NCBI GenBank assembly: GCA_044229845.1
Contig: JBGASG010000003.1
Coordinates: 288,001 to 352,000, forward strand
Source of the DNA: Candidatus Obscuribacteraceae bacterium
GTDB taxonomy: Bacteria; Cyanobacteriota; Vampirovibrionia; Obscuribacterales; Obscuribacteraceae
DNA: 64,000 nt
Direction of reading: 5' to 3'
Part shown: positions 44,040-64,000 of the stretch, in pieces
How positions within the stretch are numbered: position 1 is the stretch's first letter
Layout: the number at the start of each line of letters is the position of its first letter
Notes under the pieces: model-generated
Told to the model about the DNA's origin: nothing
Seen by the model: the letters and a program-made list of their open reading frames with translations, nothing else
The model's database searches: none
Translations under genes and position numbers: made by a program

Positions 44040-44040
44040 A

Positions 44041-46971: not shown

Positions 46972-46983
46972 TTCGAGGTTTTA

Positions 46984-47343
46984 ATGGCGAACAATCAAGC
47001 CGAAGGAAGCGATGGGATCAAAGAAAGTGACATTGTTGCAGAAACGAAGGTTATCTTCATTCGCGCATCTGATGGCGAGCGCCTGTTCGTCCGCCTGGGA
47101 ATCGGGCGTCCATTCTTCATTGCAAATGATCTGTGTTCATACTGCTACATCTTTATGGATGGGCATCTCAAACCATTGAAAGTCAGCGGCACAGATTCGC
47201 TCCAGGCGCTTTGTCTTGCGGTCCAGTTCTTGCGAAAGCAGCTGGAGACGGTGCGTAAGATGGGGTGGACGATTCTCGAAGATGATCCAAGTTCGGAGAC
47301 TGCCGAAACTTTTGACATCGACGCCTGCTTTGGTCGGAAATAG
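46984..47343 (+). CDS. Candidate immunity protein, DUF6968-like
   Basis: GAGG RBS; 12 bp after the toxin stop; IGRP...C..GTDSLQALCLA motif. Confidence 0.75.
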   Translation: MANNQAEGSDGIKESDIVAETKVIFIRASDGERLFVRLGIGRPFFIANDLCSYCYIFMDGHLKPLKVSGTDSLQALCLAVQFLRKQLETVRKMGWTILEDDPSSETAETFDIDACFGRK

Positions 47344-47371
47344 GAGTCTTAGCAATCGCACGTTTTGTGAG

Positions 47372-47473
47372 GCATTTGCATTTCTCGATCGCGCACCGGT
47401 TCCTTCCGTGCTTTTGGCGCGACCGAACTTGAGATGCTATCATCCTGAAACAGCCTGCTGGACAGCGATTCCC
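47372..47473 (+). pseudogene. Degenerate third RHS-core relic
   Basis: AFAF-x16-RCYHPETACW has the same spacing as DFGY-x16-RNYNPSLGRW in the orphan RHS. Confidence 0.45.
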
Positions 47474-47626
47474 AATACCACCACTTCTGTCCGGTGAGGC
47501 GCATTTCTGCGTGGAGCCGCTTGGATGCTGGGAGTTAAGTAAGCGTTCCAGCAACACCACGTTGACTCAGATCAGAGATCACGTAAGTTGAAATGGAGGG
47601 GTGCAAGGGTACCCCAAAAGCCGACG

Positions 47627-47717
47627 TCGAAGGCACCATATTCGGAAACCCGCAACAGGGCGTTGTTTGAAAAAGTCACGAATGAAACTTAATCGTTTTG
47701 ATCAGACACTGGTAGAT
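47627..47717 (+). repeat. Left arm of a 91-bp perfect inverted repeat
   Basis: Exact reverse complement of 50078-50168; extends 10 bp outward with 2 mismatches. Confidence 0.95.
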
Positions 47718-47728
47718 AAATATGCCAC

Positions 47729-49220
47729 TTAATGCGGTGCGAGACTTGAGGCGAGCTGAGACGCGAGCCACCGGTCCGGTAGCAAATCACCAATCTCCTC
47801 GTAGTCCTGGTTTGTCAGCGTTTCCAGAACGTCTTTCCAGTATTGGAATGGATTCACGGAAAGCAGCTTACAACTATTGGTCAAACTGGCAAGGATTGAG
47901 AAAGTGTCGCCTGCGTCTTCGTCTCCCAAGAACACCAGTTTTTCCTTCCTACCGCTACTGGGCGCAGGGCCCGTTCCGCTGCATTGTTATCGATCGGAAG
48001 AAATCCTCGTTCAGTGTAGCGCGTCAAGTTGGACCAGCGCGAGACCGAGTACTGCAGGGCCTCTCCAATTGCACTTTTCGGCAGTGTGCGAGTCTGAACG
48101 TCGCGCATCCAGTCGTGCATTTCAACCAATCTCGGCACCGCTTCTCGCTGACGAAGTTGGTGGCGGTCATCCTCCTCAAGAAGATTTCCTTGTCGCTCAA
48201 TTTCATACAGGACGTGGATTCTTGCCAAAGCTTCGTCTGCAATCCGAGGATTGTTTCCCTGCGCTCGTTCGAAGTAGCGACGCGCATGCGCCATGCAACA
48301 GAGCCGTTTCGCCTGCGTGGCGCTCGCCAACGCGTCATAACCACCGTAGGCGTCCGCTTGCACGTATCCGGCGAAGTCATTCAAAAAGTCTTGTGCATGC
48401 TTGTGTCCTCGGTCTGGGTGCCACTCAAATATTACGTAGGGGTGGTCTTCGTGACCGAGATAGGTCCAGGCATAACCGGTTGGTGCTTTACCGGCACCCT
48501 TCCTCTGAAACTTCACAGGCGTCTCGTCTGCATGGATTATCCGCGACTGCAATACCTCATCTCGCATTCGCTCGTAAATGGGTCGAACCTTTCTGCACAG
48601 ACTGCAAGCCACCGACTCATGCTGGAACGAGCAACCTTGACTCCCTGGCGTTCATACATCTGCTCTTGTCGGTATAGTGGCAGATGGTTCGCATACTTGT
48701 TTTCGATTGTGTTTGCAAGCAATCCAAATCCTGGCATGCCCTTCGCGATCGGCTGGGCACTTGTTCGGGGTGCTAACACAATATGTCCGTCGCACGTCCT
48801 GCATCCGTATTTAACTTGGCGGTGGTCAGTCACCGCGAACCTGCCTGGAATGTACTCCAGCTCTTTCCATGATTCGTGCCCAATGATCTGCCGCACGTCG
48901 GTGCACTTTGGACATCGCCGCTCTTCATCCGAAAGCGTGTACTCCTGAACAGCTTCTGGAGCGGTCACGGATGTCACCCTCCCTCCACCTCCACGCCGTC
49001 TTTCTGACGTGGCCGATCGCCCGTCGGTATACCCCGAAGCTATTTGTTGAGCGAACAGAGTAAGCTGATTCGGATCTATCTTTTCCGACTTGCTGCCAAA
49101 CTCTTCTCTGAGAAACAATTCAAGACGACGCCCCAGTCGTTCATTGTCTGCCCGCAGCTCCACAATTATTTGATGGCACAAGCTAATATCGTTTGGTAGT
49201 TTTTCCGGACTTACTGGCAT
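47729..49220 (-). pseudogene. tnpC: IS66 transposase TnpC with two frameshifts
   Basis: FGSKSEK, CPKC zinc ribbon, KYANHLPLYRQ, HADETP, QADAYGGY, CMAHARRYF, IDNNAAERALR, LLP. Frame breaks near 48585 and 47935. Confidence 0.92.
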
Positions 49221-49629
49221 ATCTTGTCTCGCTGCAAGAATCTTGCAAGGTCGTATCATGCACCATATGCGGTGTCGACGGTCTGCGAAATCTCTGTCGC
49301 CGGCGGATACTGCTCAAATCAATTCCGTCCAGGATCATTCGCAGTGTGGATGCTTCGATTTCCACGCCGGCGGATGAAAAGTTCTCTAAGTCAGGAAACT
49401 CAAAAGTGCCTTTTGGAAGCATTTTGTACCACATGGCAAAGCCGTCGTTGTCCCAGTACAGCACCTTGATTCGGTCGCCTCGTTTGTTGCGGAAGACGAA
49501 CAGATAACCGGACTGCGGGTCCAAGTTCATCGCACTGCCGACGATGCCGGAAAGTGCATCAAAACTTTGTCGCATGTCAATGTCCGACGTGCAAATGAAT
49601 ATCCTCGTACCCAGAGCAGAACTCAGCAT
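49183..49629 (-). CDS. tnpB: IS66 accessory protein TnpB
   Basis: DMRQSFDAL, LFVFRNKRGDRIKVLYWDNDGF. Confidence 0.92.
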   Translation of the reverse strand: MLSSALGTRIFICTSDIDMRQSFDALSGIVGSAMNLDPQSGYLFVFRNKRGDRIKVLYWDNDGFAMWYKMLPKGTFEFPDLENFSSAGVEIEASTLRMILDGIDLSSIRRRQRFRRPSTPHMVHDTTLQDSCSETRYASKSGKTTKRY

Positions 49630-49630
49630 T

Positions 49631-50019
49631 TCACTTTCCCACAAATCGTTCAAGCAAGATATCTAGCAACTGAGGGTCGACCCCCTCATAAACTCGGAGA
49701 ACCATTTCATCAATCCAAGTCACTTCGGCAAGCAAACGCTCTTGCATCTCAATCGGTTGCGGCGTGTCCGGTAGCACGACGGGAACGAAGGAAGACTGAG
49801 TTCCACGTGTCATCTTGCGGCGCCGTTTCAATCGATCAGCGGCTGCGGCCGCATCGGTTCTCTTGATTCGAGTAACCCAATGTCCCAGTGTATTGACATT
49901 GAGCTTTCCCTTTCGCAAAACGCTTTCTGCGACAGATCAGAAGCCCGCCATTGAAGCAATATGGATCTCCACATCGCCTCCTTTTCTTCGTCCGGCGCGC
50001 CCCGAGATTTACGCGGCAT
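49631..50019 (-). pseudogene. tnpA: IS66 accessory protein TnpA, frameshifted
   Basis: WRASDLSQKAFCERE continues as LNVNTLGHW...SFVPV in another frame (break near 49905). Confidence 0.85.
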
Positions 50020-50077
50020 CGAAGCACCGATCACCGACACCAGCCGTTGCGAAAACACTCCATTCAGCGCTAATATG

Positions 50078-50168
50078 ATCTACCAGTGTCTGATCAAAAC
50101 GATTAAGTTTCATTCGTGACTTTTTCAAACAACGCCCTGTTGCGGGTTTCCGAATATGGTGCCTTCGA
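50078..50168 (-). repeat. Right arm of the 91-bp perfect inverted repeat
   Basis: Exact reverse complement of 47627-47717. Confidence 0.95.
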
Positions 50169-50820
50169 TGGCGGCTTTATCACTGGCGATGTACGCAGTG
50201 ATTGCGCTGGTTGTTTTTTTTCATCGCCGGCACGGCCAATTTGCCTTATATCTGGGCGACCCTGTCCACTCAACTGATCGCTGGGCTGATAGCTGATAGG
50301 CGTCTTCACGCTTGATGAAGATCTCATGCGCGAGCGTTTTCGTCCGCGTGGCAAAGACGAGGACCCACTGGCTCCTGCAATACTCAGCATCTTGCTATTA
50401 GCAATCATGGTGCTGTCCGCACTCGACGCCGGTCGTTGGCATCTATCCCAGATCCCAGCCTTCATTTGCATCATCGCCGAAATATTCCAGACAATTGGTT
50501 GGCTCGGATTTCTCTGGTCCATGAAAGTGAACGCGTTTTTTTCATCTGCAATTCGCTTGCAACCAGACCGCGGACAGTACGCCATCAGCGAGGGTCCGTA
50601 CCGATTCATGCGCCACCCTGGTTATGCGTTCGCTTCTCTGGCGTTTCTTACGCAAGGTCTCTCGATGGGCTCATGGCTCGCTGTCGCGCCGGCTTTGATT
50701 GTCGTTCTATACCTTTTATATAGGACGCAGCTTGAAGAGAAAATGTTGAGGGAGGGCTTGCCGGGCTATCATGACTATGCCGAGCGAGTGCGCTACCGAT
50801 GGCTGCCGGGCGTGTGGTAA
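50156..50820 (+). pseudogene. Isoprenylcysteine carboxyl methyltransferase/PEMT-family membrane protein with 5' frameshifts
   Basis: NAFFS, GPYRFMRHPGY, EEKML..LPGY..Y..RVRYRWLPGVW in 50326-50820. The upstream TM segment is rejoined by removing one T from a T8 run and one copy of a tandem GCTGATA. Confidence 0.75.
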
Positions 50821-50831
50821 AACGCGGTGTT

Positions 50832-51317
50832 TCAACCGGCGGCGCGCTGTCCGTGTGTATGACTTTTTGCTGTAGTGTCTGTTAGACGAATGATTTCTAC
50901 TGAACAATGGGCACGAGCCAGCACAGCTTCCGCAATGCTGCCGATGAAGAATTTGGCCAGTCCGGTTCTGCCGTGCGAGCCGACAATAATCATATCTGCC
51001 TGCCATTCATCAGCAATCTGCACTATGCGACCTTCAATCGATCCGGCGGTTACCAATCCGGCGATGTTGGTGCCGCACGTTTCTGTCAGTTGAGCGACCG
51101 CTTTTGAGACCATCTGCTCACCGAACGTACGCCCCGCTTCATGCACCATCGCCGAGACATCACCGAAGCTGTGACTCAGACCTATATAGGTAGCCGGCAA
51201 TGGTTGCACCACATGCAAAACCAAGAACTGCGTGTCATCAGCCCACTCGCGCTCTGCCACCGAATCCAGTGCAGCCTGAGCAAAGCGAGACCCGTCCGTA
51301 GCGATTAGAACTTTCAT
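50832..51317 (-). CDS. Universal stress protein
   Basis: MKVLIATDGS, IVGSHGRTG..FIGSIAEAV, CSV; GGAGG RBS before the ATG at 51317. Confidence 0.93.
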   Translation of the reverse strand: MKVLIATDGSRFAQAALDSVAEREWADDTQFLVLHVVQPLPATYIGLSHSFGDVSAMVHEAGRTFGEQMVSKAVAQLTETCGTNIAGLVTAGSIEGRIVQIADEWQADMIIVGSHGRTGLAKFFIGSIAEAVLARAHCSVEIIRLTDTTAKSHTHGQRAAG

Positions 51318-51516
51318 AAAACCTCCTCGCCTGGCGGTAGCAGGGTGTATGACGCGAGTCTGAACCGGGTGTTTCCCCAAAAGCTCTCAACTCAGCCATA
51401 CTGCTGCGCATAGGACTGCACGAGAATTATACTGCTACCGCAGATGGTGGCACTCAGATGAGGAACCATTGTCCGAGGCGGTGCGTCTGTGCCAGAAGTA
51501 TAGGGGAGGATAGATA

Positions 51517-51894
51517 ATGAAACGGTTCAGTTTCGCTTTAACACTTATTGCTCTTATGGGCATTCTGCCTGCGGCTAACGCTGATTCGCTGAAAGGTCCG
51601 CTGGAAGGTTCGGTTTCGGAAGACGGAATGAGCCTCAACTTCTGGCTGAACAGCCCGGTTGGCTCCGACGATCGCGGCCGCTATCTGCGTTTCGTGACCG
51701 ATGACCGTCTGCATCGAGATAATGTGGGTCTGCGCAATCGCGACTTTGAAAACTTCAGCAGCGATACGTTCACCGCGTCAGCCAGCGCCAACATGGGGAC
51801 GAAAACCAGAGGCATCGCGCGCGCCGCTCGCGAAAGCCAAACCCATCGTACGACCGCCAACCGCGCGATCTACATCACTGGTCCCTGGTTCTAA
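51517..51894 (+). CDS. Exported hypothetical protein
   Basis: GGAGG RBS; signal peptide ending ANA. Confidence 0.75.
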   Translation: MKRFSFALTLIALMGILPAANADSLKGPLEGSVSEDGMSLNFWLNSPVGSDDRGRYLRFVTDDRLHRDNVGLRNRDFENFSSDTFTASASANMGTKTRGIARAARESQTHRTTANRAIYITGPWF

Positions 51895-51916
51895 ACACCT
51901 CCGGAAATCAGCAATG

Positions 51917-51950
51917 ACGAGCAGCTCACTCAGGTGGGCTGTTTCGTTTT
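51917..51950 (+). terminator. Intrinsic terminator
   Basis: CAGCTCAC-TCAG-GTGGGCTG stem followed by TTTCGTTTT. Confidence 0.7.
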
Positions 51951-52056
51951 GTCGACTAGCGGTTACAGCGCTTTGCTACCGCGTTGTCAGTTGCAAGCAG
52001 GAAGCAAAGCTTCCAACATAGCTCTTCACTAAAGGATCCACTGCCTGGTTGAGCAT

Positions 52057-53406
52057 GTGATGATTGTTGAGGTACCCACGCTATCGTCTACTGCCCCACC
52101 GACCAAGGAAGTCACTCCTATGGATGACGCAGATTGGCTCAAGTTCTTTGAGCAGGCCAAAAAGGCCACGGCGGAAGGAAAGTTTGGTTACGCTGAAACC
52201 AGCTGGTCAGCTGCTTTGCAAGAAGCCGAGACTTTCGGCCCCACGGATGAGCGCCTTGTAAAAACGCTGGAAGGTCAGTCTGAGACCTTTTGCTTGCAAG
52301 GCAAGTTCAGGCAGGCCGAAAGACCTTGCTTTCAGGTTTTGGAAATCTTCCGCAAACTGCATGGTGACACCCATGTGAAGAGCGGTTTTGCCGCTCACAA
52401 TCTGGCCAATGTCTATCACATGCAGCAAAAGTACGGGCAGGCGGAGCCGCTCTACAAGCTGGCTCTGTCGGTTAAAACTAAGGAGCTGGGAGAAACGCAT
52501 CCCGACGTCGGCAAGTTGCGAGACAGCTACATCGATCTTTTGATCAAGACCAATCGACAACCAGAAGCCGACAAGATCAAGTCTCCAGTTGCCCAGCCGG
52601 CAGCAGCTGTGGCTGCTGAAAAGCCAGGCGGCACCGGACAGCTGTTCCGCAACAAAGCGATTTCTGCGGAGTCGCTTGCCGGTCTGGCGGAGGAAAAACA
52701 ACCAGCGGAAGTCGAAAAGAATTCCATCCAAGCCGATGAGGAACTCTGGGAAGACTTAAAGAACCGCGCCGAAAAATTTCTCGCCACCGGACACAAGAAT
52801 GAGTCGCTCGATCTGTGGAATCAAGCGATCAACTTAGCCGAGCGCTTTCCGTCGCAAGAGAAACTCTCCTATTCGCTCGATCGCATCGGAGACATCATGT
52901 TCTCCACCGAAAAATATGGACAGGCAGAAATGGCCTGGTGGCGTTCTCTGCAAATCAAGCTGGCAGCCATCGGAGAAGCGCATCCGGCCGTTGCTTACAC
53001 CGCCAACAAACTGGCCGGATTGCACTATTTGCTCGGTCGCTATTCCGAAGCAGAAGCGTACACAAAGAAATGCCGGGACATTTACACTGCCACCACCGGA
53101 AAAGAGCATCCGAACGTAGCCACGTGCTTAAATAACCTGGCAAGCCTCTATCACGTGCAAGGCAGATACGCAGAAGCTGAGGAAAACTACCTGGGAGCGA
53201 TGACCATCAGGAGAAAAATCCTCGGCACAGACCATGCGGAAACGCTCGCTGTCACTAAGAACTACGCAGCCTTGCTGAGAACTGTTGGTCGCGATCGCGA
53301 AGCTGCTGACCTCGACAAGGAGACCAGCGGCTTGATTACAGGCAGCTGGAAAGCCATTTCAATCGATGCTGATTCATTGCTGCGAGGCAAGAATCTCGAC
53401 GATTGA
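52057..53406 (+). CDS. Tetratricopeptide-repeat protein
   Basis: HPNVATCLNNLASLY.VQGRYAEAE repeats in two duplicated halves. Confidence 0.9.
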   Translation: MMIVEVPTLSSTAPPTKEVTPMDDADWLKFFEQAKKATAEGKFGYAETSWSAALQEAETFGPTDERLVKTLEGQSETFCLQGKFRQAERPCFQVLEIFRKLHGDTHVKSGFAAHNLANVYHMQQKYGQAEPLYKLALSVKTKELGETHPDVGKLRDSYIDLLIKTNRQPEADKIKSPVAQPAAAVAAEKPGGTGQLFRNKAISAESLAGLAEEKQPAEVEKNSIQADEELWEDLKNRAEKFLATGHKNESLDLWNQAINLAERFPSQEKLSYSLDRIGDIMFSTEKYGQAEMAWWRSLQIKLAAIGEAHPAVAYTANKLAGLHYLLGRYSEAEAYTKKCRDIYTATTGKEHPNVATCLNNLASLYHVQGRYAEAEENYLGAMTIRRKILGTDHAETLAVTKNYAALLRTVGRDREAADLDKETSGLITGSWKAISIDADSLLRGKNLDD

Positions 53407-53446: not shown

Positions 53447-53476
53447 GAAAAAGCCCACCTTTCAGTGGGCTTTTTC
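53447..53476. terminator. Bidirectional intrinsic terminator
   Basis: GAAAAAGCCCAC-CTTTCA-GTGGGCTTTTTC between convergent genes. Confidence 0.85.
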
Positions 53477-53538: not shown

Positions 53539-54312
53539 TTAGCAGGCTTGAGCTGGCGTCAAGCTGCGAATGCTGAGCGAAGAGCTGGCGACAGATTCCG
53601 CGCACACCGAGGCGTACTGTCTTTCAGTGCTCTGCCATTTGGCTTTTACGATGCCGTTCTTGTAGATATCCTGGTGCGTCACGAACGCGATGCGCTGGCA
53701 GATGCTGGAGCCAGCCAGTTCGTTTTGAACTGCTTCTTGATGAGCATCATCGCGCGAGACAATCCAGATCATGTCGATCTCACCGCTCTCCAGCGCCTTT
53801 TCGCAGACGGCGGTCAGTTCCGCGCGATCAGCTTTCGGCTGGTTGATGATACCGATACGGTGATCTACACCATTGCGGTTAAAAGAGATCTTGGCATCAA
53901 TTGCCGTCGTGCCGGGAACCGCTTTCGTGGTTGTCCAAGCGACATTGCTGATCAACCCGTCCTTTTGGTCGACCAGGAAGAGCATGCGAAGATTAGCCAC
54001 TTCCAGAAGGTGGCGCTGGCTGTCGCAGTTGCCCAGGTCGATGTCGGTGCTCTGTGCAGTCAACAACTCGCGCGTCATCGGCGAGAGCATATACACAAGC
54101 GGTTTCGTGGGGGTTGTCCACCACGGAAGTTTGCCGCCGTGCCGTTCGCACAGGAGGTAATCGAGGTAGAAGAGTTTGCGTAGACGGTCGCGGATCAATA
54201 CCGGTTTATCGTCGCAAGAGATAAACCAGGCGATGTGTTTTTCGAGGAGAACTTGATGCTCTTCAATCAGTTTGAAGATCATCATGTCTCTGTCGCTTAG
54301 TTGAATGGCCAT
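53539..54312 (-). CDS. Replication-relaxation (Replic_Relax)-like wHTH protein
   Basis: LSDRDMMIF.LI.EH..L, RDRLRKL, P.VYMLS, HLLEVANL match the family pattern as I recall it; C-terminal nuclease-like motif degenerate. Confidence 0.6.
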   Translation of the reverse strand: MAIQLSDRDMMIFKLIEEHQVLLEKHIAWFISCDDKPVLIRDRLRKLFYLDYLLCERHGGKLPWWTTPTKPLVYMLSPMTRELLTAQSTDIDLGNCDSQRHLLEVANLRMLFLVDQKDGLISNVAWTTTKAVPGTTAIDAKISFNRNGVDHRIGIINQPKADRAELTAVCEKALESGEIDMIWIVSRDDAHQEAVQNELAGSSICQRIAFVTHQDIYKNGIVKAKWQSTERQYASVCAESVASSSLSIRSLTPAQAC

Positions 54313-54422: not shown

Positions 54423-55118
54423 TCATAGGTTAGGATCACGTGTTGTGTATTGCAAAAGTGCATCATCATGACGCGGTTGGTGAAGGTTGTAAGTGACTCT
54501 CATTTTGGAATCCATCATTTTTAGAGAGCGATATTGCTGTCTGAGCCCTTCGACACGGGTATGAATTTCTTCCAGCGAGGCTTGCAGTTCTTCTTGAGTC
54601 TTGGCCGCCTTGCGTGGGCGAATCATATCTTCGAAAACCGCAGCGGAATCGTCGTACCAGTCCGCCATGTTCTGCATGTAGACTGTGCTTTCCGGCATTC
54701 CATTGCAGGGCGGCATCGAACGAATGGTCTTAGCTAGCAGACGGTATCTCTTCGCGATTCCGGCAGCAGTGCGCGACCATTCCATGACCCGCTCGACTTC
54801 TTGATTGAGCGGCTTTTTCATAATCACGGCTTCGCTGACCGTCACTTTGTAGTGACCAACAGCGTCGTCATAGGCTTCCATCCACTCCAACGGTTTCGAT
54901 TGCGGAGTTACTCGCGGCATGACCCACGGGGGAGTCGGACGCTTGTAGGTGTTGGCAGCAGCATTCGGCACAGGTGCCGTGGTGCGGTTGAAAACGTCTC
55001 CTTTTTGTTGCGGATGACCGCCGTTCGGCTGCGTCGCTTGCGCCATGGAGGAGGCGAAAGTGGTGGCAGCGAAGATGGCGCTGGTCAATGCAATTTGGAT
55101 ACGTTTCGTGGCTGTCAT
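54423..55118 (-). CDS. Exported alpha-helical hypothetical protein
   Basis: Signal peptide ending MAQA, Pro-rich linker, helical domain. Confidence 0.8.
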   Translation of the reverse strand: MTATKRIQIALTSAIFAATTFASSMAQATQPNGGHPQQKGDVFNRTTAPVPNAAANTYKRPTPPWVMPRVTPQSKPLEWMEAYDDAVGHYKVTVSEAVIMKKPLNQEVERVMEWSRTAAGIAKRYRLLAKTIRSMPPCNGMPESTVYMQNMADWYDDSAAVFEDMIRPRKAAKTQEELQASLEEIHTRVEGLRQQYRSLKMMDSKMRVTYNLHQPRHDDALLQYTTRDPNL

Positions 55119-55185: not shown

Positions 55186-56673
55186 TTACGGTCCTGGGTT
55201 CGCTGGTCCACCCGGGTTCGCTGGTCCTGCTGGTCCTGCTGGTCCTGCTGGAGCCGGTCCCGGATTGGTCGGCGGAAGGAACGGTCCACCCGGTCCACCA
55301 CCGCCCGGTCCTGGAATGTTCATGCGCGTGCCGTCTTGGTACTGCGCCCAGGTGTCAGTAGAGTTGAAATCAAAGGTGTTCATCTGGACGATCTTCCAGA
55401 TGGTGTAGCCGGCGAGCAGGAGGAGCAAACCACCGACTGCACCGATGACTCGCGAACCGCCGTACGGGCTGCCGAAGACCATCGACCACGCTGCCAGAGC
55501 AACGATGATGGTGGCCATAACGACGCCCAGGATAACCAGATAGCGAGAGAAGACTCTTACTGTCGGGAGCGGTCCCATGAAGTCATATTTTGGTTGTTGT
55601 TTTTGACGGTTGAGTTGGGTGTCTTGTTCGCCGTTGGCTCCAGCTTTGGCTCCGCCGTTGTTAACGATGCCGAGACCATTGTTGTTGCCGCCGTTGTTGA
55701 CGACTTGTTGTCCGCCGTTGCCGCCGCCGAAGTCGTTCTGACGTGTGCCACCATTGCCGGCACCACCTTCGAACTGACCGTTGCCGCCGTTGCCGGCACC
55801 ACTTTCAAATACGCCGCGTCCGCCGTTGCCCTGGCCGCCTTCGAACAGTCCCTGACCGCCGTTGCCGCCACCGCCTTCGAACACGCCTTGACCGCCGTTA
55901 CCAGCGCCGCCTTCGAAGAAACCACGGCCACCGTTGCCCTGACCGCCTTCGAACGTGCCGCGACCGCCATTGCCCTGGCCGCCTTCGAACAGTCCTTGAC
56001 CGCCATTGCCGGCGCCGCCTTCGAACATGCCCTGACCGCCGTTGCCATAGCCACCTTCAAAGGTGCCTTTGCCATTGTTGCCCCAGCCGCCTTCGAAGAG
56101 TCCCTGTCCGCCGTTGCCGGCGCCGTTTTCATACTTGCCCTGACCGCCGTTGCCGTAGCCGGGTTCGTAGGTGTTTTTGCCGCCGTTGCCCCAGCCGCCT
56201 TCGTAGAGACCTTGACCGTTGATCGGCGCGCCGTTTTCATACACACCGTCCATTTGACCGTGTTGTGTTTGATAACGACCGTAGTTGTTGATGACTGGAC
56301 CTTTGGTGCCCGGGGCGCCACGGGTTCCGAAAATGTTGCCGTGTGTCGGATCGGCAAAGCTGGACGGAGGCAAGCTCGAAGCGCCTTGATCGCCGGGAAT
56401 GACACGCGGAGCCATGGAGCCATCGCCGACCGGCGGCGGTTGTCCTTGCGGAGCAGCTTGGTTAGGACGCTGCCAGGAAGCACCATGGATCAAAGGAGTA
56501 CGCAATGTCGATTGTTGCGTCGGACCGGACAAGCATGGCTTGGTCGGGTTGTACAGCATCTCGGCATATTCAGCGCGAGCGGTTGTCGGTGCGAACAGCA
56601 TCACCACACCAGTGATGATCAGGCTGATCGCCGTCAACGCTTGTTTTACTCCAACTCTATCCTTGCCTGACAT
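55186..56673 (-). CDS. Exported Gly-rich tandem-repeat protein with a C-terminal two-TM, pilin-like segment
   Basis: AGGAGA RBS overlapping the rpoB-like stop; signal peptide ending ARA; 13 x 12-aa repeats; two hydrophobic helices; Pro/Gly tail. Confidence 0.85.
   Translation of the reverse strand: MSGKDRVGVKQALTAISLIITGVVMLFAPTTARAEYAEMLYNPTKPCLSGPTQQSTLRTPLIHGASWQRPNQAAPQGQPPPVGDGSMAPRVIPGDQGASSLPPSSFADPTHGNIFGTRGAPGTKGPVINNYGRYQTQHGQMDGVYENGAPINGQGLYEGGWGNGGKNTYEPGYGNGGQGKYENGAGNGGQGLFEGGWGNNGKGTFEGGYGNGGQGMFEGGAGNGGQGLFEGGQGNGGRGTFEGGQGNGGRGFFEGGAGNGGQGVFEGGGGNGGQGLFEGGQGNGGRGVFESGAGNGGNGQFEGGAGNGGTRQNDFGGGNGGQQVVNNGGNNNGLGIVNNGGAKAGANGEQDTQLNRQKQQPKYDFMGPLPTVRVFSRYLVILGVVMATIIVALAAWSMVFGSPYGGSRVIGAVGGLLLLLAGYTIWKIVQMNTFDFNSTDTWAQYQDGTRMNIPGPGGGGPGGPFLPPTNPGPAPAGPAGPAGPANPGGPANPGP
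55756..56223 (-). repeat. 13 tandem 36-bp coding repeats (NGGxGxFEGGxG)
   Basis: Strict 12-aa periodicity in the translation. Confidence 0.9.
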
Positions 56674-56686
56674 TATGTGGTCTCTC

Positions 56687-59600
56687 CTATGAGTCCTGAT
56701 TGTGATTGTCAGAATTGCCATCTTCCTTTTTGGCAGGCGCGACGGTCACCGTCTGGGTGAGTTGCGCAAGTTGTCGCGAGAGCGACGCGAGTTCACTGAT
56801 CGACGGGAAGTCGAGCATCTCGTCGGATTCATCGGCCCAGAGGCTGGCGGCCAGCGATCTGGCGACATCCTGGGCGGTGGAAGGAGCTTCAGTCGCCGGA
56901 ACTTGCAGTTCTTCAGCGTGCACCACTTCCGGTTCTACTTGTTCGGCGCAGGGGATGCCCTGAGCGGCAGCACCAATTACGGTGGCTTCGGGTTCCAGCC
57001 CCATTGGTTGCACCAGTTCGGCCAACTCTTCCAGAGTTTCTGGGCTCATTTCGAGCATCGCCGGATCCATCACGTCTTTCTCGGCACGAGCCGGCATGTC
57101 GGTGAGGATGTCGGTTGTTTGTTCGCTGATGAATGCATCGAGCAGGTCGGAAGAAACCGGTTCGTCTTCGATATCGTCGATGAGCGGCTCCATGGACATT
57201 TCGAATTTGGTTTTGACGGCGCCCTTGGCGTTGGTGACGGAGGTGATGATCGGTGCCGTCGGCGTCGGGCGCACGACAGGCTCGTAATCGCCAGCCGGAA
57301 TCTCGATGATGTTTCTGCCTTCTTCTTCGAATTGAGCAACTTTGGAGACCATGTACTCTTCTTCGAGCGACTTGGCAGCGGCTTCGCGAGCGTCTTTCTC
57401 GGCAGCCTCTTCTTGGGCTTCGACGTATTTGCCCAGAGTCACTTCCAGACCGAGACCGCGCAGTTCGCAGCACAGTCCGTCGAAAGCAGCGGTGCGTCCG
57501 CCGGCGGTGACTTCCTTGCCTTGCACCATATCGGCATAAGCTTGATGGCGGCCTTGAATGTCATCGGACTTGATGGTCATCATTTCGTGCAGCAGGTGCG
57601 AGGCGCCGTAGGCTTGAATTGCCCAGACTTCCATTTCGCCCATGCGCTGTCCGCCGTGGTTGGCTTTGCCGCCGACCGGCTGTTGTGTAACAGCGGCGTA
57701 CGGTCCGCCCAATCCGGAGCGGGCATTGATTTTGTGCAGAACCAACTGGTTGAGCTTCAGCATGTACTGTCTGCCGACCAGGACCGGCGAGTCGAAAGCT
57801 TCGCCTGTTCTGCCGTCAAACAATTGCACTTTGCCGGATTCGGTAACCCACTCATAGCCGGGCAGTTTGCGCACTTCGGCAAGAGCTTGGGTGACGAGCT
57901 TGAAGGAAGCATCTTTTTCCAGCGATTCGTCGAACTGGTGAATGCGATAGTGACGATTGAGGATGCTGGAATAAAGACCTAGTTGTGTGTCGAATACTTG
58001 ACCGACGTTCATACGGCTGGGGACGCCCAGTGGATTCAACACGATGTCGCACGGAGTGCCGTCCGGCAGGTAAGGCATGTCTTGATCAGGAACTACGATC
58101 GAGACGATACCTTTGTTGCCGTGGCGTCCAGCCAGCTTGTCGCCGACTTCGAGCGGGCACAAACGCGCGATAAGTACTTCGATTTCGCAGATGATGCCAG
58201 CTTTCAATTCCGGTGTGGTTTCCGGTGTGAAGATGCGGACATCGATAACGCGACCACCCGAGCCGTGCGGAACACGCAGGCTGCTGTCAGCCATTTCTTC
58301 CGCCACTTTACCGAAGATAGCTTGCAAGAGTTCTTCTTCAGCGGAGAGAGCGCGAGCTTCTTTCGGGCTCAATTTGGCGACGAGAATATCGCCCGGGTTG
58401 ACGTAGCTGCCGACCATGGCGATGCCGCGTTCGTCGAGATGCTCGAGGTCTTTACCGGCGACGTTCGGCAGTTCCGGCGTCAGAATTTCTGGTCCGCGCA
58501 GGGTCTGGTGAACACCGATGGAGTGCTTTTCGATTTCGATGTGCGAAAGTTTGTGGTCGCGGATCAAACCTTGACGGACGACAATCGCGTCTTCGAAGTT
58601 GTAGCCGTTCCATGGCACGAAGGCGACGAGAAGGTTTCTTCCCAGAGCCAGTTCGCCTTGATCGATACCAGGACCATCAGCGATGATCTGTCCGGCTTCG
58701 ACGCGATCGCCCTGTCTGACGATCGGGCGCTGGTCGAGAATTGTGTTCTGGTTGGTGCGGTCGAAGCGAATCATGTTGTAGGTGCGCGATTCGCCGGAAG
58801 CTTGGGTGATGACGATCTGATCGCCGTTGACCAGGCTGACAGTACCGGCGCGACGGGCGACGACTGAGTGACCGGACGAGCGAGCGACGATTTTTTCCAT
58901 GCCGGTGCCGACGCGCGGACGTTCCGGCTTGATCAAAGGCAGAGTTTGGCGCATCATGCCGCCACCCATGAGAGCGCGGTTGGCGTCATCATGCTCGAGG
59001 AAAGGAATGAGAGCCGATCCGACCGAGATGAAACCTTGCGGAGCAATACCGATCATGTCTACTTGATCTGGTGTCACTTCGAAGAACTGTTCGCCGCAGC
59101 GTGCCGAAACGAACGGTCCTTGAATCATGTCGTTTTCGACTTTGGTGTCGGGCGGTGCAAGCGTGAAACGCTTGTCGTCTGATGGTGTCAGGTAACGGAC
59201 TTCATTGGTCACATGTCCGTTTTGCACGACGCGATAGGGAACGGTCATGAAGCCGTCGTCATCGATACGGCAGTAGGTTGCCAGATATGCCACCATACCG
59301 CAGTTTTTACCTTCAGGCGATTCCACCAGGCACACGCGACCGATTTGCGAAGGATGCACATCGCGCATTTCGTTCGGAGCGGCGTTCGGGTCGATGCCAC
59401 CAGGACCGAAGGAGGTGATTCTTCTTCTGTGCGACAGTTCGGAAAGTGGGTTCTGTTGGTCGAGGTATTGAACCAGGGGGTTGCCGGCGAAGAACTTGCT
59501 CATGGCATTGACGAACGGGCGCGAATCGACGAAATCATTGGCGCTGCCGATTTCATCTTCTTCGAACAGTTCGAGGCGGGTGCGAATCGAGCGCGACATT

Positions 59601-60598
59601 TGTGCCAGCGCCGGACGCAGCCCCTTGGTCATCACATCGCCGATACCGCGCAGGTGGCGGTTTTCCAAGCTGTCGATATTATCTGTTTGTCCAGAGCCGA
59701 GCGGCAAAAGCAGAATGTATTCGATAGCAGCAAGAATATCTTCAGCGGTCAGTTGCGAAGAGCGCTCTTCCAGACGCAGCTTATCGTTGAAGCGGCGACG
59801 ACCGAGCGAACCGAGTGAATAACGACGTTTGTCGGTGAGTTCTTTCAGGGCAGCATGACCGGATTGCGAACCGCCGCCACCATCTGGTTTCCACGCGCGA
59901 CCGACGACGGAAAGCGCTTCTTGCTGAGTGACTTGTTTCCACTCGATGCGATTCTTTTCCAGAAGCGGAGCGAGACGTTTTTGAATGGTGGACAGTTCGA
60001 CGCCCATGGCGGTCAACACTGTGGTGGCAGCCACCCAACCACGTTTGGGCAATTTGATACGGCATTTGGCGCGGCTGGTTTTGCCACTGCCGGTTTCCAG
60101 ATCCAGTTCGACGGAGACCGGAGCGCCGAGTTCAGCCAGGATAAGAGCTTTGTAGAGCATCGGGTTGTTCATTTGGAAATAGACGCCTGGTGCACGCACC
60201 AGTTGTCCGAGGACGACGCGCTCGGAACCGTTGATGACGAAGGTTCCACGATCGGTGATCACCGGCAGGTCGCCCATGTAAGCAGTCGACTTGCGCAGTT
60301 CGTTGGTTTGCAGGTCACGCAGCCACACATCCATGAGCAGGCGACGGGCATGCGTCATGTTAGTCTTGCGAGCTTGCTCGGCAGAACTGGGATAACCGGA
60401 ATCAACTGCATAATCTTCGAACTTCCAGTGAGCTTTGCCGTCGGGTCCGACGAACGAAAGTTCAAGGCGCGGATTGAATTCGCTGGCAATCGGAGAGATT
60501 TCAGCGAAGAGGGCGCCCAGGGTTTCTTCCAGAAAACGTCGGTATGAACGTCTCGGGAATTCTGCCAGATCTGGAGGCTGGAAGTAGAAGTTACTCAT
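56687..60598 (-). CDS. rpoB: Divergent DNA-directed RNA polymerase subunit beta (probable paralog) with acidic C-terminal tail
   Basis: GTFVINGSERV, PFLEHDDANRALMG, GYNFEDA, GDKLAGRHGNKG, NPLGVPSRMNVGQ, QQPVGGKA..GGQRMGEMEVWA, TIKSDD. No rplL or rpoC neighbours. Confidence 0.95.
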   Translation of the reverse strand: MSNFYFQPPDLAEFPRRSYRRFLEETLGALFAEISPIASEFNPRLELSFVGPDGKAHWKFEDYAVDSGYPSSAEQARKTNMTHARRLLMDVWLRDLQTNELRKSTAYMGDLPVITDRGTFVINGSERVVLGQLVRAPGVYFQMNNPMLYKALILAELGAPVSVELDLETGSGKTSRAKCRIKLPKRGWVAATTVLTAMGVELSTIQKRLAPLLEKNRIEWKQVTQQEALSVVGRAWKPDGGGGSQSGHAALKELTDKRRYSLGSLGRRRFNDKLRLEERSSQLTAEDILAAIEYILLLPLGSGQTDNIDSLENRHLRGIGDVMTKGLRPALAQMSRSIRTRLELFEEDEIGSANDFVDSRPFVNAMSKFFAGNPLVQYLDQQNPLSELSHRRRITSFGPGGIDPNAAPNEMRDVHPSQIGRVCLVESPEGKNCGMVAYLATYCRIDDDGFMTVPYRVVQNGHVTNEVRYLTPSDDKRFTLAPPDTKVENDMIQGPFVSARCGEQFFEVTPDQVDMIGIAPQGFISVGSALIPFLEHDDANRALMGGGMMRQTLPLIKPERPRVGTGMEKIVARSSGHSVVARRAGTVSLVNGDQIVITQASGESRTYNMIRFDRTNQNTILDQRPIVRQGDRVEAGQIIADGPGIDQGELALGRNLLVAFVPWNGYNFEDAIVVRQGLIRDHKLSHIEIEKHSIGVHQTLRGPEILTPELPNVAGKDLEHLDERGIAMVGSYVNPGDILVAKLSPKEARALSAEEELLQAIFGKVAEEMADSSLRVPHGSGGRVIDVRIFTPETTPELKAGIICEIEVLIARLCPLEVGDKLAGRHGNKGIVSIVVPDQDMPYLPDGTPCDIVLNPLGVPSRMNVGQVFDTQLGLYSSILNRHYRIHQFDESLEKDASFKLVTQALAEVRKLPGYEWVTESGKVQLFDGRTGEAFDSPVLVGRQYMLKLNQLVLHKINARSGLGGPYAAVTQQPVGGKANHGGQRMGEMEVWAIQAYGASHLLHEMMTIKSDDIQGRHQAYADMVQGKEVTAGGRTAAFDGLCCELRGLGLEVTLGKYVEAQEEAAEKDAREAAAKSLEEEYMVSKVAQFEEEGRNIIEIPAGDYEPVVRPTPTAPIITSVTNAKGAVKTKFEMSMEPLIDDIEDEPVSSDLLDAFISEQTTDILTDMPARAEKDVMDPAMLEMSPETLEELAELVQPMGLEPEATVIGAAAQGIPCAEQVEPEVVHAEELQVPATEAPSTAQDVARSLAASLWADESDEMLDFPSISELASLSRQLAQLTQTVTVAPAKKEDGNSDNHNQDS

Positions 60599-62697
60599 TA
60601 CTTAGCCACCTCGACATCGCCATTACCGCTCACCATGGAGCGTTTGTGAATCGCAAGCGCCCGGGCCAGGTCTTCGGCGTAAGCGCGATTTGCTGGTTCG
60701 AGAGCAGACGCGATCCGGAATTCAGAGATTGCATCAGCGATGCGACCGGCGGCCAGCATGTTGACGGCCAGGCGGTGGTGCACTTCGCTGTTTTGAAGGA
60801 ACTTAGCGGCCACGCCTTGCAGGATGCTGATGGCTTGGTCGTAGTTCTTGTCGCCTTCGGCTTGCGCAGCTTTCGAAATCGCTTCGGCGACTTGGCTGTT
60901 TGCTGAGTTTGCTGCGTTCGGCTTCTGGGCGGCTTGCTGTTGAGCAGCCAGAGCTTGTTGTTGGCGAGCTTGCTGCTGTTGGGCGGCGATTGCTTGTTGC
61001 TGGGCAGCCACGGCTTGCTGTTGCATCATTTGCTGTTGCGACATTTGCTGCGGCATGGCGCCGGCAGCCGGCATTGACTCGTTGTGCGTGCGCAGACCAT
61101 ACTGGTTGCCGGCCATTTGCATGCCGTTACCGCCTTCGAACACGTTCTTTTGCGGAACGGGCGGCGGGTAGGCAGCTTGTTGCTGCATCGGTTGCTGCTG
61201 TTGCACTTGCGGTTGTTGCATTTGCTGCTGCTGTTGCTGCTGCATTTGCACCATTTGCTGAGAAACGCTTTGTTGCGGCTGAGCGAGTTGGCTGGCCACT
61301 TGATTGACTTGCGGAATCTGCATACCGCGATTCTTCATGCCCGACTGCATTTCGCGCATGCGAGCAGCGGCTTCGCGGTTGTTTTCGGGATCGATAAGCA
61401 CGCAGGTCAGGTAGGCCTGGTAGGCACCTTGGTAGTCGCCATTGGACTCGAGGGTTTCGCCCATCAGGAATTGATACTTGGCGTTGCGGGGCTCCATCAT
61501 CACAGCCTGAGTGATTTCAGCGAGAGCTTCGCGGCGCAGACCTTGACCAAAGAATGTTTCGGCGGCGGCTTTGTGCTTTTCGGCGGAAGCGTGCTGGAGA
61601 GCTTTTTGCAGGCTGGCACGACCGGAAGGCAGACCAGGATGTTTGGGATCGAGAGCTTCCAGTTTGCGGTATTCATTGTCGGCACCAGCGAAGTCGCCGG
61701 TCAATTGCAGGGCGCCAGCCAGACCGAGGTGGTTTTCGGCGAGCAATGGATTTTGTGCCACTTGCCGGCGCCAAATTTCAACCAGTTGTTGACCAGCGGC
61801 GGCATCGCGCGGATCGCAGATGACTGCTTTGCGCAGCGAAGCACCAGCGCCGGTGTAGTCTTTTTGAGCCAGAGCCAGCATGCCCAGTTGGCGATGGGCT
61901 GGTCCGAAGTTGGGATCTTTGATCAGAGCTTGTCTATACCAGTTGGTGGCGGTGGTCAATTGACCATAACGCAGAGCCATATCGCCGACTTTGACGAAAG
62001 TGCGAGCCGTGGGCTCGATTTGCATGGCGGCCTGGTATTCAATAGATGCGCCTTCGAAGTCGCCGACAGCAGCCAGTTGGTCGCCGGTGGCGATTCTGGT
62101 CTCGGCGTTGTTGGGGTCACGACCCATCTTCTTAAGGGCTTCACCGAGCAAACGACCAGCCAGTCCGTTGTCTGGAGCGGCGGCGAGGGCTTGGCGGAAA
62201 AGGTTGGCCGCGGTGTTGAAGTCGCGGGCGTTCAGTCTTTCTTGACCGTAGGCGCAACGCGCTGCCGAAAGGTTGATTTTGTATTGCTTGTTGCTGGGCT
62301 CGTACTTGCAGGCTTCTTCGTGAGCAGCAATCGACTCGGACCAGCGACCTGCTTTTCCGAGTGACACACCTTTATTGTTTTGTTCGAGGGCGTACTGGAC
62401 GCGACGCTTGAAGTTGTCGCCGACGGCTTGTTGTTCTTTGGCTGCCTTTTCTTCAGCCGCTTTCTTAGCTTCTTCAGCAGCTTTCTTCTTTTCGGCTTCG
62501 ACAACACGGTAGTCGGGACGGCGCTGGAATCCGCTCACTACCGGAGCGCTGGTCTGACCTTCTTCGAAATTCTTCAGGTCGCGCTCGCGGGGCAGCGGCT
62601 GGGCGTTCATCTTGGTGGCATGCGCCGGGATGAACATCGTGCCCGAGAGCGTGGTGGCGAGAAGGAGAGTTGCTGCGATGGGTCGAACTTTGTGCAT
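60598..62697 (-). CDS. Exported TPR protein with Gln-rich linker
   Basis: Signal peptide MHKVR...PAHA, 34-aa TPRs, poly-Q tract; stop overlaps the rpoB-like start (TAATG). Confidence 0.9.
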   Translation of the reverse strand: MHKVRPIAATLLLATTLSGTMFIPAHATKMNAQPLPRERDLKNFEEGQTSAPVVSGFQRRPDYRVVEAEKKKAAEEAKKAAEEKAAKEQQAVGDNFKRRVQYALEQNNKGVSLGKAGRWSESIAAHEEACKYEPSNKQYKINLSAARCAYGQERLNARDFNTAANLFRQALAAAPDNGLAGRLLGEALKKMGRDPNNAETRIATGDQLAAVGDFEGASIEYQAAMQIEPTARTFVKVGDMALRYGQLTTATNWYRQALIKDPNFGPAHRQLGMLALAQKDYTGAGASLRKAVICDPRDAAAGQQLVEIWRRQVAQNPLLAENHLGLAGALQLTGDFAGADNEYRKLEALDPKHPGLPSGRASLQKALQHASAEKHKAAAETFFGQGLRREALAEITQAVMMEPRNAKYQFLMGETLESNGDYQGAYQAYLTCVLIDPENNREAAARMREMQSGMKNRGMQIPQVNQVASQLAQPQQSVSQQMVQMQQQQQQQMQQPQVQQQQPMQQQAAYPPPVPQKNVFEGGNGMQMAGNQYGLRTHNESMPAAGAMPQQMSQQQMMQQQAVAAQQQAIAAQQQQARQQQALAAQQQAAQKPNAANSANSQVAEAISKAAQAEGDKNYDQAISILQGVAAKFLQNSEVHHRLAVNMLAAGRIADAISEFRIASALEPANRAYAEDLARALAIHKRSMVSGNGDVEVAK

Positions 62698-62889
62698 CGT
62701 GGTGGAAGAACCGTGCCGGTGGCGAACTGTGAGCACAGCTTAACGATGCGGGGGGTATGCGGTCTATTGGGGTTTGTCCCACGGCATTCGTAAATCTCCC
62801 ATGCCGGATAAAATCGCGCCCCATGGGCGTTCACCCGCCGTTTTGAGTTGCGTAAAAACCGCAAGATTTCGCGTGTCGGGATGACAGAC

Positions 62890-63999
62890 TTAGCGCAAGG
62901 TCTGCAAAACGGTCGGGCGAGCCAGAACAGTGTCAGATCCAAATGGCTGTTGTTTGTTTCGTACGTCGACTGTAGGCAGAGGCGGGACCAGGTGGTTATT
63001 TTCTTCATCGCAAGCGAACCCGGCCATGTGTTGAGCATCGAACACAGGTTCTGCATATCGGGGCTCGCTTGTTTCCTCCCCTACCAGAACCGGGTGGGAC
63101 ATGGTCTTGGTCATAGCGTATTCGATATCTGCCATGGACATCGCGGGTGCAGGTGGACAGGTTCCTGGGTCCGGCACGTTTGCTTCTCTAGTTTTAAGAG
63201 CTGATGGAGTAGTGATAGCCGGTAAATTAGAAACAGGGTCAGCCTGTCTTTCAGGGAAAGCGTCTTGCTCATAGTTCTGGTTAGGACTCCACCCCACCAG
63301 TGCCGGCACGATCGACGCGCTGGCGTCGGCGGGCAGACCCTTCCCATGTTCAGGCATAAAACCGTGAATAGGCTGGCGGTCGTGAGCAATGAGCTGGTAG
63401 GGGTCGGCCATCGCCGAGGGCTTGCCGGACGGCGCCGGGGTGACAGGCTGGGGCGGCGTCGGGGTGTTTTCCTGCTCTTCGATTTGCTGGCGCAGCTGTT
63501 CCAGGGTACTGGTCAACGCCTGCTTCGCCGCAGACACGCGCATACCAAAATACATGCGGAAGTCCATGCCGCTGAGACCGGGAGTGCGACCCGCCTTCAT
63601 GTTCCAGATGGGCTCAGCGCGAGCAAAGACTTGGAAGCCGGGAATTTGTCTGAACAGTCTGCGAGCAATCTCGAAATCAGAGATCATAGTGTAATTATTC
63701 TTGGGGATGGTGGCATGTTCGCGAAATGGTTCGCGGAAGTTCTGCACGAAGGTGGAGGTGGCCGAGAACGTCCATCCACCACGTTGATGCACCATACCCC
63801 AAGTGTAAAAGGGGTCTATTTCCCGGTTTGGAGATTTGAAATAGCCGGTGCCGCGCAACTGCAAGAGACAATTGGCAAACACCACCGTATTTGGTGGCGT
63901 AGTCAGAACGCGAGTAGCGGTGATGCCGGGCAAAAAGTCGAACAATGGCAGCTGATTGGTCTGCCAGAGATCGCGGAACTGCATTTCGACTTGAACGTT
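62890..63999 (-). CDS. Partial hypothetical protein; possible outer-membrane beta-barrel segment followed by a low-complexity tail
   Basis: Frame is open to the window edge; alternating aromatic beta-strands (WTFSATSTF, FQVFARAE, FRMYFGMRVS). Confidence 0.6.
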   Translation of the reverse strand, partial: NVQVEMQFRDLWQTNQLPLFDFLPGITATRVLTTPPNTVVFANCLLQLRGTGYFKSPNREIDPFYTWGMVHQRGGWTFSATSTFVQNFREPFREHATIPKNNYTMISDFEIARRLFRQIPGFQVFARAEPIWNMKAGRTPGLSGMDFRMYFGMRVSAAKQALTSTLEQLRQQIEEQENTPTPPQPVTPAPSGKPSAMADPYQLIAHDRQPIHGFMPEHGKGLPADASASIVPALVGWSPNQNYEQDAFPERQADPVSNLPAITTPSALKTREANVPDPGTCPPAPAMSMADIEYAMTKTMSHPVLVGEETSEPRYAEPVFDAQHMAGFACDEENNHLVPPLPTVDVRNKQQPFGSDTVLARPTVLQTLR

Positions 64000-64000
64000 C

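Follow-up and report, generated by a model that had tools for sequence, protein, structure and literature searches.

A divergent second RNA polymerase beta subunit gene in Obscuribacterales and its predicted role

Bacterial transcription is usually pictured as the work of a single core RNA polymerase, which sigma factors redirect, and to our knowledge the exceptions to this are the near-identical rpoB pairs of actinomycetes. What purpose could a strongly divergent second rpoB serve? The question is raised by a stretch of 64,000 nucleotides (the window; coordinates refer to it, and features lie on its minus strand unless stated otherwise) from a Candidatus Obscuribacteraceae bacterium (GenBank assembly GCA_044229845.1, contig JBGASG010000003.1, positions 288,001 to 352,000). 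One intact frame at 56687..60598, recognized by Pfam and curated profiles, encodes a second RNA polymerase beta subunit of 1303 amino acids (beta2, gene rpoB2). Our best explanation, which we regard as fairly probable on the sequence comparisons below, is that beta2 is an anciently diverged second beta subunit, kept across Obscuribacterales, that likely joins the host alpha, split beta-prime and omega subunits as a second core predicted to be active.

Identity, distribution and descent of rpoB2

The window gene is not the housekeeping rpoB. That copy lies on another contig of the same genome (G000:C1:23731-27300, G000 denoting the window's genome), carries the canonical motifs, and has rpoC1 and then rpoC2 downstream. 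At 45% identity to it, rpoB2 is an orphan without rpoC linkage, its neighbors being tetratricopeptide repeat (TPR) and Gly-rich genes in 21/21 loci (20 relatives plus the window's genome). It scores above the curated cut-offs of TIGR02013 (1034 bits, cut-off 801) and NF001616 (1078 bits, cut-off 896), for which the housekeeping copy reaches 1656 and 1618 bits, and it holds six Rpb2 Pfam families in canonical order, with Rpb2_1 under its cut-off. The top match in both sequence and Foldseek searches was a housekeeping cyanobacterial-type RpoB (PDB 8SYI chain C). The structural model of beta2 was of low quality (predicted TM-score, pTM, 0.46; predicted local distance difference test score, pLDDT, <50 in fork, flap tip and switch regions), and Foldseek retrieved beta chains with it at E 1e-86, but with TM 0.41 and a root-mean-square deviation (rmsd) of 16.5. 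Beta2 resembles housekeeping RpoB in domain order, compact architecture and catalytic residues except H1237, and differs from it in being unlinked to rpoC1/rpoC2 and in its remodeled lobe, fork loop 2, rifamycin pocket, flap tip and switch region. An acidic C-terminal extension (56690..57457), 256 amino acids long here, had no Pfam family match and includes two motifs conserved among paralogues, one beta-rich and the other amphipathic and near the end; the housekeeping beta of this genome likewise has an acidic tail.

The window's genome contains two rpoB genes, one rpoA, one beta-prime N-half and one beta-prime C-half, and phmmer and tblastn searches with four large-subunit queries found no further large-subunit copy in this 88% complete assembly. 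Given this incompleteness, relatives were checked as well: a second beta-prime was found in 0/61 family genomes, a single beta-prime N-terminal match being present in 55 of them and none in six incomplete ones.

We searched 60 relatives for the paralogue: 36 family genomes, three sister-family genomes and 21 belonging to other orders of the class. The paralogue was present, at 73-100% identity, in 33/36 Obscuribacterales family genomes, the three without a match being 58, 71 and 85% complete, as well as in 1/3 sister-family genomes, and in 0/21 from other orders. Across 60 phylum-wide genomes there was no paralogue-like match, with an ordinary rpoB in 56 and no rpoB match in four. Among the best 120 of 7998 database candidates, 105 were relatives at 72-100% identity and the next followed at 40-45%, leaving a gap between. 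A candidate intermediate, P0107 (40% identity, 977 bits), was rejected as a housekeeping-type sequence with internal duplications. A split paralogue in genome G012 was likewise rejected as a sign of decay: the break falls at a run of unknown bases and is therefore no evidence of it. Genome G007 has two beta2 copies (G007:C50 and G007:C21) and 8% contamination, so that either duplication or a binning error may be involved.

The paralogue is vertically inherited and under purifying selection. In trees of the paralogue and housekeeping copy from 23 genomes, 13/20 splits were common to both, 8/10 strong splits of each were found in the other, and no strong splits were in conflict. Synonymous distances were saturated in 5/22 pairs and above 1 in 16 more, leaving one clean pair for the ratio of nonsynonymous to synonymous distance (dN/dS), which was 0.003/0.177 for the paralogue and 0.003/0.203 for the housekeeping copy. 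Mean identity between the two copies within a genome was 44%, and the paralogues grouped in a single clade whose stem measured 2.15 changes per site. With Escherichia coli included, this clade was drawn to the root by long-branch attraction; without E. coli and under a mixture model, it fell inside the class with no resolved sister. The simplest reading of these trees would be that the gene duplicated within the class and then went through a burst of change.

Fixed substitutions and the active center

Residues are numbered as in E. coli, via alignment with rpoB from its annotated genome. The alignment comprised E. coli, 30 paralogues (best-scoring loci) and 41 housekeeping copies from the class, with 20 phylum sequences added later; partial or gap-split paralogues (G008, G012, G021, G026, G027) and the second G007 copy were excluded. 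Contact sets and domain borders were assigned by hand rather than measured from structural coordinates, and sites are not independent. We take the segment at 57629..57715 to be switch 3, and the roles ascribed here to the gate loop (59870..59899), R540, R542, switch 3 and the subunit interfaces are presumed.

The active center was nearly intact. R678, E813, D814, K1065, K1073 and R1106 were kept in 30/30 paralogues, as were R529, R687, Q688, R1269 and M1273, and the motifs of R678, E813/D814 (58583..58600), K1065/K1073 (58109..58144) and R1106 (58007..58021) recurred in 91/91 full-length database relatives, in which the other diagnostic motifs were found in 84 to 91. The sole change in the active-center set lies at 57719..57757, with H1237Q, D1240L, D1241H and H1244N. 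We call near-invariant the 412 positions where at least 95% of 61 ordinary sequences agree with E. coli; of those in our hand-assigned set of contacts to nucleoside triphosphate (NTP), Mg or RNA, 13/14 were kept vs 236/398 elsewhere (p = 0.011). Because NTP/Mg and RNA 3'-end residues are kept, beta2 would still polymerize. The primer phosphate is contacted by H1237, K1065 and K1073 (bioRxiv 2021.04.06.438613).

Outside this center, an earlier note on this DNA had listed substitutions on surfaces contacting promoter, sigma and rifamycin, all of which are present in the translation of 56687-60598. The span that it named, 58295-60150, falls within this single frame. Its claims about the core recognition element (CRE) tryptophan, fork loop 2, Rif cluster I, the change from MGANMQRQ to MGGGMMRQ and that from KLNHLVDDK to KLNQLVLHK all hold across the family and are foreign to the housekeeping enzyme of the lineage: W183P, S512V, S531T, L533F, N684G, Q686M, K900E, R903Q, E908K, K909V, H1237Q and D1241H occurred in 30/30 paralogues and 0/41 housekeeping copies, and R540P and R542A in 29/30 and 0/41. 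The same 30/30 vs 0/41 pattern was found for D199P, Q510P, I572V, S574Y, H1244N, Q1264N and F1265H. Changes beyond those listed earlier are I572V and S574Y in Rif cluster II, D199P, E374G, Q510P and Q1264N/F1265H (30/30 each).

Along the path of the non-template strand, W183P lies at 60119..60136 with D199P nearby, and the beta gate loop (59870..59899) has R371K, E374G and a glycine run. In the G+2 pocket segment (59648..59683), H447S, G449E and R452H are fixed, and the pocket core (R151, D446, R451) is kept in 30/30 paralogues. According to a review, D446 is the most critical G+2 pocket contact, W183 is the T+1 stacking residue of the CRE and unstacks +1T, pausing and the choice of start site depend in part on these contacts, and the flap tip is where sigma region 4 touches beta (PMC5101437). 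Fork loop 2 (59360..59407) has L538I, R540P, R542A, G544P and V547M. Within it, E546 of the core-recognition pocket is E in 29/30 paralogues, as in E. coli, and A in 41/41 housekeeping copies; this site therefore looks more E. coli-like than the host's own enzyme, not less.

Rif cluster I (59408..59488) has Q510P, S512V, F514Y, S531T and L533F, with R529 and, as noted earlier, Q513, D516 and H526 kept in 30/30 paralogues, and Rif cluster II (59282..59335) has P560L, T563S, P567K, I572V and S574Y. Rifampicin contacts include H526, R529, S531, L533 and I572, as given in a published study (PMC7073797). N684G and Q686M (58946..58969) stand next to the kept R687 and Q688, R678 being kept just upstream. 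In the flap-tip helix (58292..58342), K900E, R903Q, E908K and K909V are fixed, and mean net charge over flap residues 888-915 shifts from -1 to -4 in the paralogues. The charge changes noted earlier for this helix are thus real, but the flap tip alone was not enriched in fixed changes (4/12, p = 0.5) and its hydrophobic face (L901, L902, F906) is kept. The switch-3 region (57629..57715) carries a two-residue insertion, S1252A, L1253A, L1259V, Q1264N and F1265H, with K1262, R1269 and M1273 kept.

Whether divergence is concentrated on functional surfaces has a mixed answer. Of the 412 near-invariant positions, 249 were kept in the paralogues, 103 (25%) were fixed as different and 60 were variable. 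Fixed changes were unevenly spread when binned by nine domains (p = 0.01 by chi-square, or 0.0003 when all positions not kept are counted), reaching 22/51 (43%) in residues 509-575 and 15/43 in the lobe, vs 3/34 in residues 1058-1120; the densest areas were fork loop 2 and the rifamycin pocket, and catalytic barrel segments had 9-11%. For the hand-assigned sets, 6/11 CRE and non-template strand positions (p = 0.03) and 9/18 rifamycin pocket positions (p = 0.02) were changed, and the pooled CRE, rifamycin and flap sets gave 19/41 vs 84/371 elsewhere (p = 0.002). These surface-set p-values are optimistic, since the sets were assigned by hand and contain motifs chosen in the earlier note for being different. 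The proposed clustering therefore stands as non-uniformity, but the enrichment is moderate against a protein-wide change of a quarter of near-invariant positions. From these sites we infer that beta2 may have a changed sigma preference, altered pausing and rifamycin insensitivity, the last likely a by-product rather than a purpose.

The rpoB2 operon and its surroundings

The order TPR protein, rpoB2, Gly/Pro-rich membrane protein, 231-amino-acid protein and 257-amino-acid protein was found in 21/21 loci, in all of which the rpoB2 start codon overlaps or abuts the TPR stop. Gene 1 (60598..62736), the TPR protein, has a likely start at 62697. Gene 3 (55186..56721) encodes a Gly/Pro-rich protein with a two-helix hydrophobic hairpin, for which resemblance to pilins is a weak lead (best feature score 0.86, pilin clusters 0.80-0.82, all below 0.9), and gene 4 (54423..55118) a helical protein of 231 amino acids. 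Signal peptides of genes 1, 3 and 4 were judged by eye. Genes 3, 4 and 5 had no Pfam or NCBIfam match, and a Pfam scan of 19 members of gene 3 and 19 of gene 5 gave no family.

Gene 5 (53539..54312) encodes a putatively cytoplasmic protein of 257 amino acids with a nearly invariant N-terminal domain. By language-model features (0.95) and predicted fold (TM 0.70), it resembles Replic_Relax (PF13814) and MOB-C-type relaxases, and it differs from them in that 0/19 members match the Pfam family and in being chromosomal, single-copy and family-wide. Its C-terminal model weakly matches restriction-endonuclease folds (Z 7.7 or less, rmsd 6.6, 160 aligned), and the acidic and lysine nuclease motif (PD-(D/E)XK) looks degenerate by eye from the consensus. 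Tied fold matches, in the range of common folds, include chain E of the African swine fever virus RNA polymerase 8q3b (Z 7.0). Complex prediction for beta2 residues 1-745 with gene 5 residues 1-240 gave a score of 0.00 (mark 0.32; controls not folded), a result that bears on binding in neither direction. Gene 5 was present in 94/103 other family genomes and 38/39 high-quality genomes of the order, and in 0/300 genomes elsewhere in the phylum. Just below it lies a possible terminator from a consensus scan, a 12-pair hairpin flanked by A and T runs (53447..53476, no strand assigned).

Upstream of the operon, a conserved element of 76 bases (62726..62801) was found in 17/20 upstream regions, with two TGGGA half-sites 20 bases apart followed by promoter-like hexamers. 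Two weaker copies lie elsewhere in the genome (G000:C18:109158 and C18:374763, both plus strand). A sigma-70 promoter scan gave 4 sites vs 3.8 expected and did not pick up the conserved element. The palindrome TGGGA-N4-TCCCA occurred nine times, always outside frames of at least 250 amino acids; at other spacings, TGGGA/TCCCA fell inside such frames in 31/39 cases and outside in 8/39. Given that perfect palindromes, unlike other spacings, all lie outside long frames, the TGGGA element points to a putative regulon. The motif precedes the operon and several large uncharacterized or secreted-protein genes. A divergent response regulator, NarL-like by NCBIfam but below cut-offs, was found upstream in 20/21 loci. 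Between regulator and operon, the window's genome has a 601-amino-acid gene without known family (G000:C18:350890-352695; window 62890-64000 and beyond), whose place is taken by unrelated or weakly related genes in five other loci and by none in 14. The genome encodes sixteen sigma factors, and divergent group-2-like genes at C13:182969, C22:70584, C20:133349, C20:50276 and C3:100246 are candidate partners of beta2.

Contigs from four RNA runs (of 17; four studies) matched parts of all five operon genes at ~99-100% identity, a weak sign that the operon is transcribed, as DNA may be present in RNA libraries. Window 46756-52067 was not covered by contigs of any of these four runs, and coverage of the housekeeping rpoBC region was likewise only patchy. 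The runs were chosen for holding rpoB2, the data are contigs, and the likeness limits differ (90 vs 97), so that expression is not ranked here.

Elsewhere in the chromosome, two VirB4/TraG-like ATPase genes were found (G000:C17:20254-32220, L124; G000:C13:100089-102914), and such genes occurred in 36/36 family and 3/3 sister-family genomes, which suggests a domesticated type IV secretion-like system. An operon at G000:C13:4114-12741 (L125) encodes two tandem paralogues of the N-terminal part of gene 3 and a 1572-amino-acid protein, and a TGGGA palindrome at C13:12863 precedes it. The window itself also carries two Rhs-repeat proteins with LysM on the plus strand (36436-43140 and 43876-46971), one of them bearing Peptidase_C39 at its N terminus. 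A fragment of an IS66 transposase comes next (48537-49259), and a protein of 1022 amino acids (32031-35099, plus strand) has Mur-ligase-like domains fused to carboxypeptidase-regulatory-like repeats.

A proposed second polymerase core and its alternatives

In the mechanism that we propose, rpoB2 would come on conditionally, through the TGGGA element upstream of it and the divergent NarL-type regulator, and probably alongside an envelope or secretion programme, as three of the four operon partners look exported. Under the regulated condition, beta2 would displace the housekeeping beta (beta1) in a share of cores, and beta2 cores would differ in melting, start-site, pausing and factor-binding behavior. 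With the path of the non-template strand recast (W183P, D199P, gate loop, fork loop 2) and the flap tip more acidic, promoter melting, start-site choice and pausing would change, as would the sigma or flap-binding factor that beta2 prefers, and the second polymerase would serve a special gene set. A more specific version, in which beta2 cores recognize a promoter class of their own through a dedicated partner (either a lineage-specific sigma or the nuclease-fold DNA-binding protein of the operon) and drive a programme of envelope and type-IV-secretion-like functions, is tentative and, in our view, rather doubtful.

Several observations weigh against a second active core kept across the order. 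Two sister-family genomes, 94% and 88% complete, had no paralogue match, and no sigma gene was found among the conserved neighbors of the 21 loci. H1237, one of the three primer-phosphate contacts, is Q in 30/30 paralogues and 91/91 database relatives, and the C-terminal segment meeting beta-prime has the fixed changes P1320T, E1321A, S1322A and V1325G. Evolution of the paralogue runs at about double the housekeeping rate (mean identity 80% vs 90%, 253 pairs), and in the same 22 genomes 290 columns were invariant in the housekeeping copy alone vs 69 in the paralogue alone, so that some of the divergence is relaxed constraint. In favor of the second core, 168 of the 450 columns invariant in both copies of these genomes hold different residues, and taken with the 290 vs 69 columns this indicates both new and relaxed constraint.

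The alternative that survives best, though we consider it unlikely, is that beta2 is weakly active or non-productive and captures alpha and beta-prime, thereby damping or parking housekeeping transcription in a developmental or dormant state. H1237Q, W183P and the loss of R540 and R542 would fit such a decoy, as would the long acidic tail, a possible mimic of nucleic acid; with no second beta-prime, beta2 must compete with beta1 if it is assembled. However, K1065, K1073, R678, R1106, E813, D814, Q688, R529 and R1269 have been kept over a stem of about two changes per site, and the beta2 core is not more acidic overall (net charge -9.1 vs -12.7).

Less likely again, the operon may be a domesticated conjugation-type piece in which beta2 transcribes or primes transferred DNA with a Replic_Relax-like specificity factor, or is itself delivered into another cell. 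The resemblance of gene 5 to Replic_Relax argues for this, along with VirB4/TraG-like ATPases in 36/36 family genomes (over cut-off in only 2/21 other-order genomes) and the TGGGA palindrome upstream of the operon holding two gene 3 paralogues. Yet the window's genome (88% complete) had no TraG-D_C coupling-protein match, genes 3 and 5 belong to no Pfam family in their 19 members each, the pilin resemblance stays below 0.9, and VirB4-like genes also occur in two sister-family genomes where beta2 was not found; moreover, any family-specific gene would co-occur with beta2.

That beta2 is chiefly a rifamycin-resistant back-up, like the actinomycete rpoB2 and rpoB(R), we hold to be improbable. Nine of the 18 pocket positions are fixed as different, including S531T, L533F, I572V and S574Y, and in one study S574Y with L533I gave E. 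coli a minimum inhibitory concentration of 500 ug/ml (PMC7073797). One or few changes suffice for resistance, yet 103 near-invariant positions have changed, mostly outside the pocket, while Q513, D516, H526 and R529 are kept and nothing in the annotation of the operon partners relates to resistance. That the gene is decaying after duplication, comes from a mobile element or phage, or entered the bin as a contaminant, its substitutions being drift, might be read from the long stem, faster rate and long-branch attraction to E. coli in one tree; it is very improbable given full-length matches without internal stops in most family genomes, a dN/dS of ~0.02, tree congruence with the housekeeping copy and a single syntenic chromosomal context in 21/21 loci.

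A second active core would have partial parallels elsewhere. Plants have in NRPD2 of Pol IV and Pol V a duplicated, fast-diverged catalytic subunit that forms a specialized polymerase sharing other subunits. The likeness is one of working only, in a eukaryotic system whose largest subunit is duplicated too. The phage and mobile two-subunit RNA polymerases, with a beta-prime-like partner of their own and a patchy, mobile distribution, differ from the present case, in which no dedicated beta-prime was found and inheritance is vertical and syntenic; viral collections lay outside the search. Actinomycete paralogue pairs are rpoB(S)/rpoB(R) of Nonomuraea gerenzanensis and rpoB/rpoB2 of Nocardia farcinica, where rpoB(R) lacks six residues of rpoB(S), carries five substitutions relative to it and relies on H526N (PMC5431353). 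These pairs and the present one have in common a second beta gene beside a normal rpoB; in both, the fork and rifamycin region is altered, and a second polymerase form redirecting gene expression has been proposed. Unlike those near-identical pairs, beta2 is 45% identical to its counterpart, keeps H526 in 30/30 paralogues and has more than 100 near-invariant positions fixed as different; it is also family-wide, with a long acidic tail and a five-gene operon. We found no description of an Obscuribacterales beta paralogue in a full-text literature search, subscription journals being mostly outside its reach, and the accessible text of a study sampling 11 Vampirovibrionia RpoB sequences mentions none (bioRxiv 2020.02.28.969766).

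For marker-gene work, the paralogue could be mistaken for rpoB or for contamination in genome bins, because it passes rpoB cut-offs and many database records say simply beta subunit. As an ancient, family-wide beta paralogue with a near-intact active center and a rewritten DNA path, flap and drug pocket, rpoB2 would show, as an experiment made by nature, which parts of beta are open to reprogramming, and two cores differing in one subunit would be directly testable by reconstitution. If our explanation is true, Obscuribacterales would have a second cellular RNA polymerase obtained by beta swap rather than by sigma, a bacterial counterpart of eukaryotic polymerase specialization.

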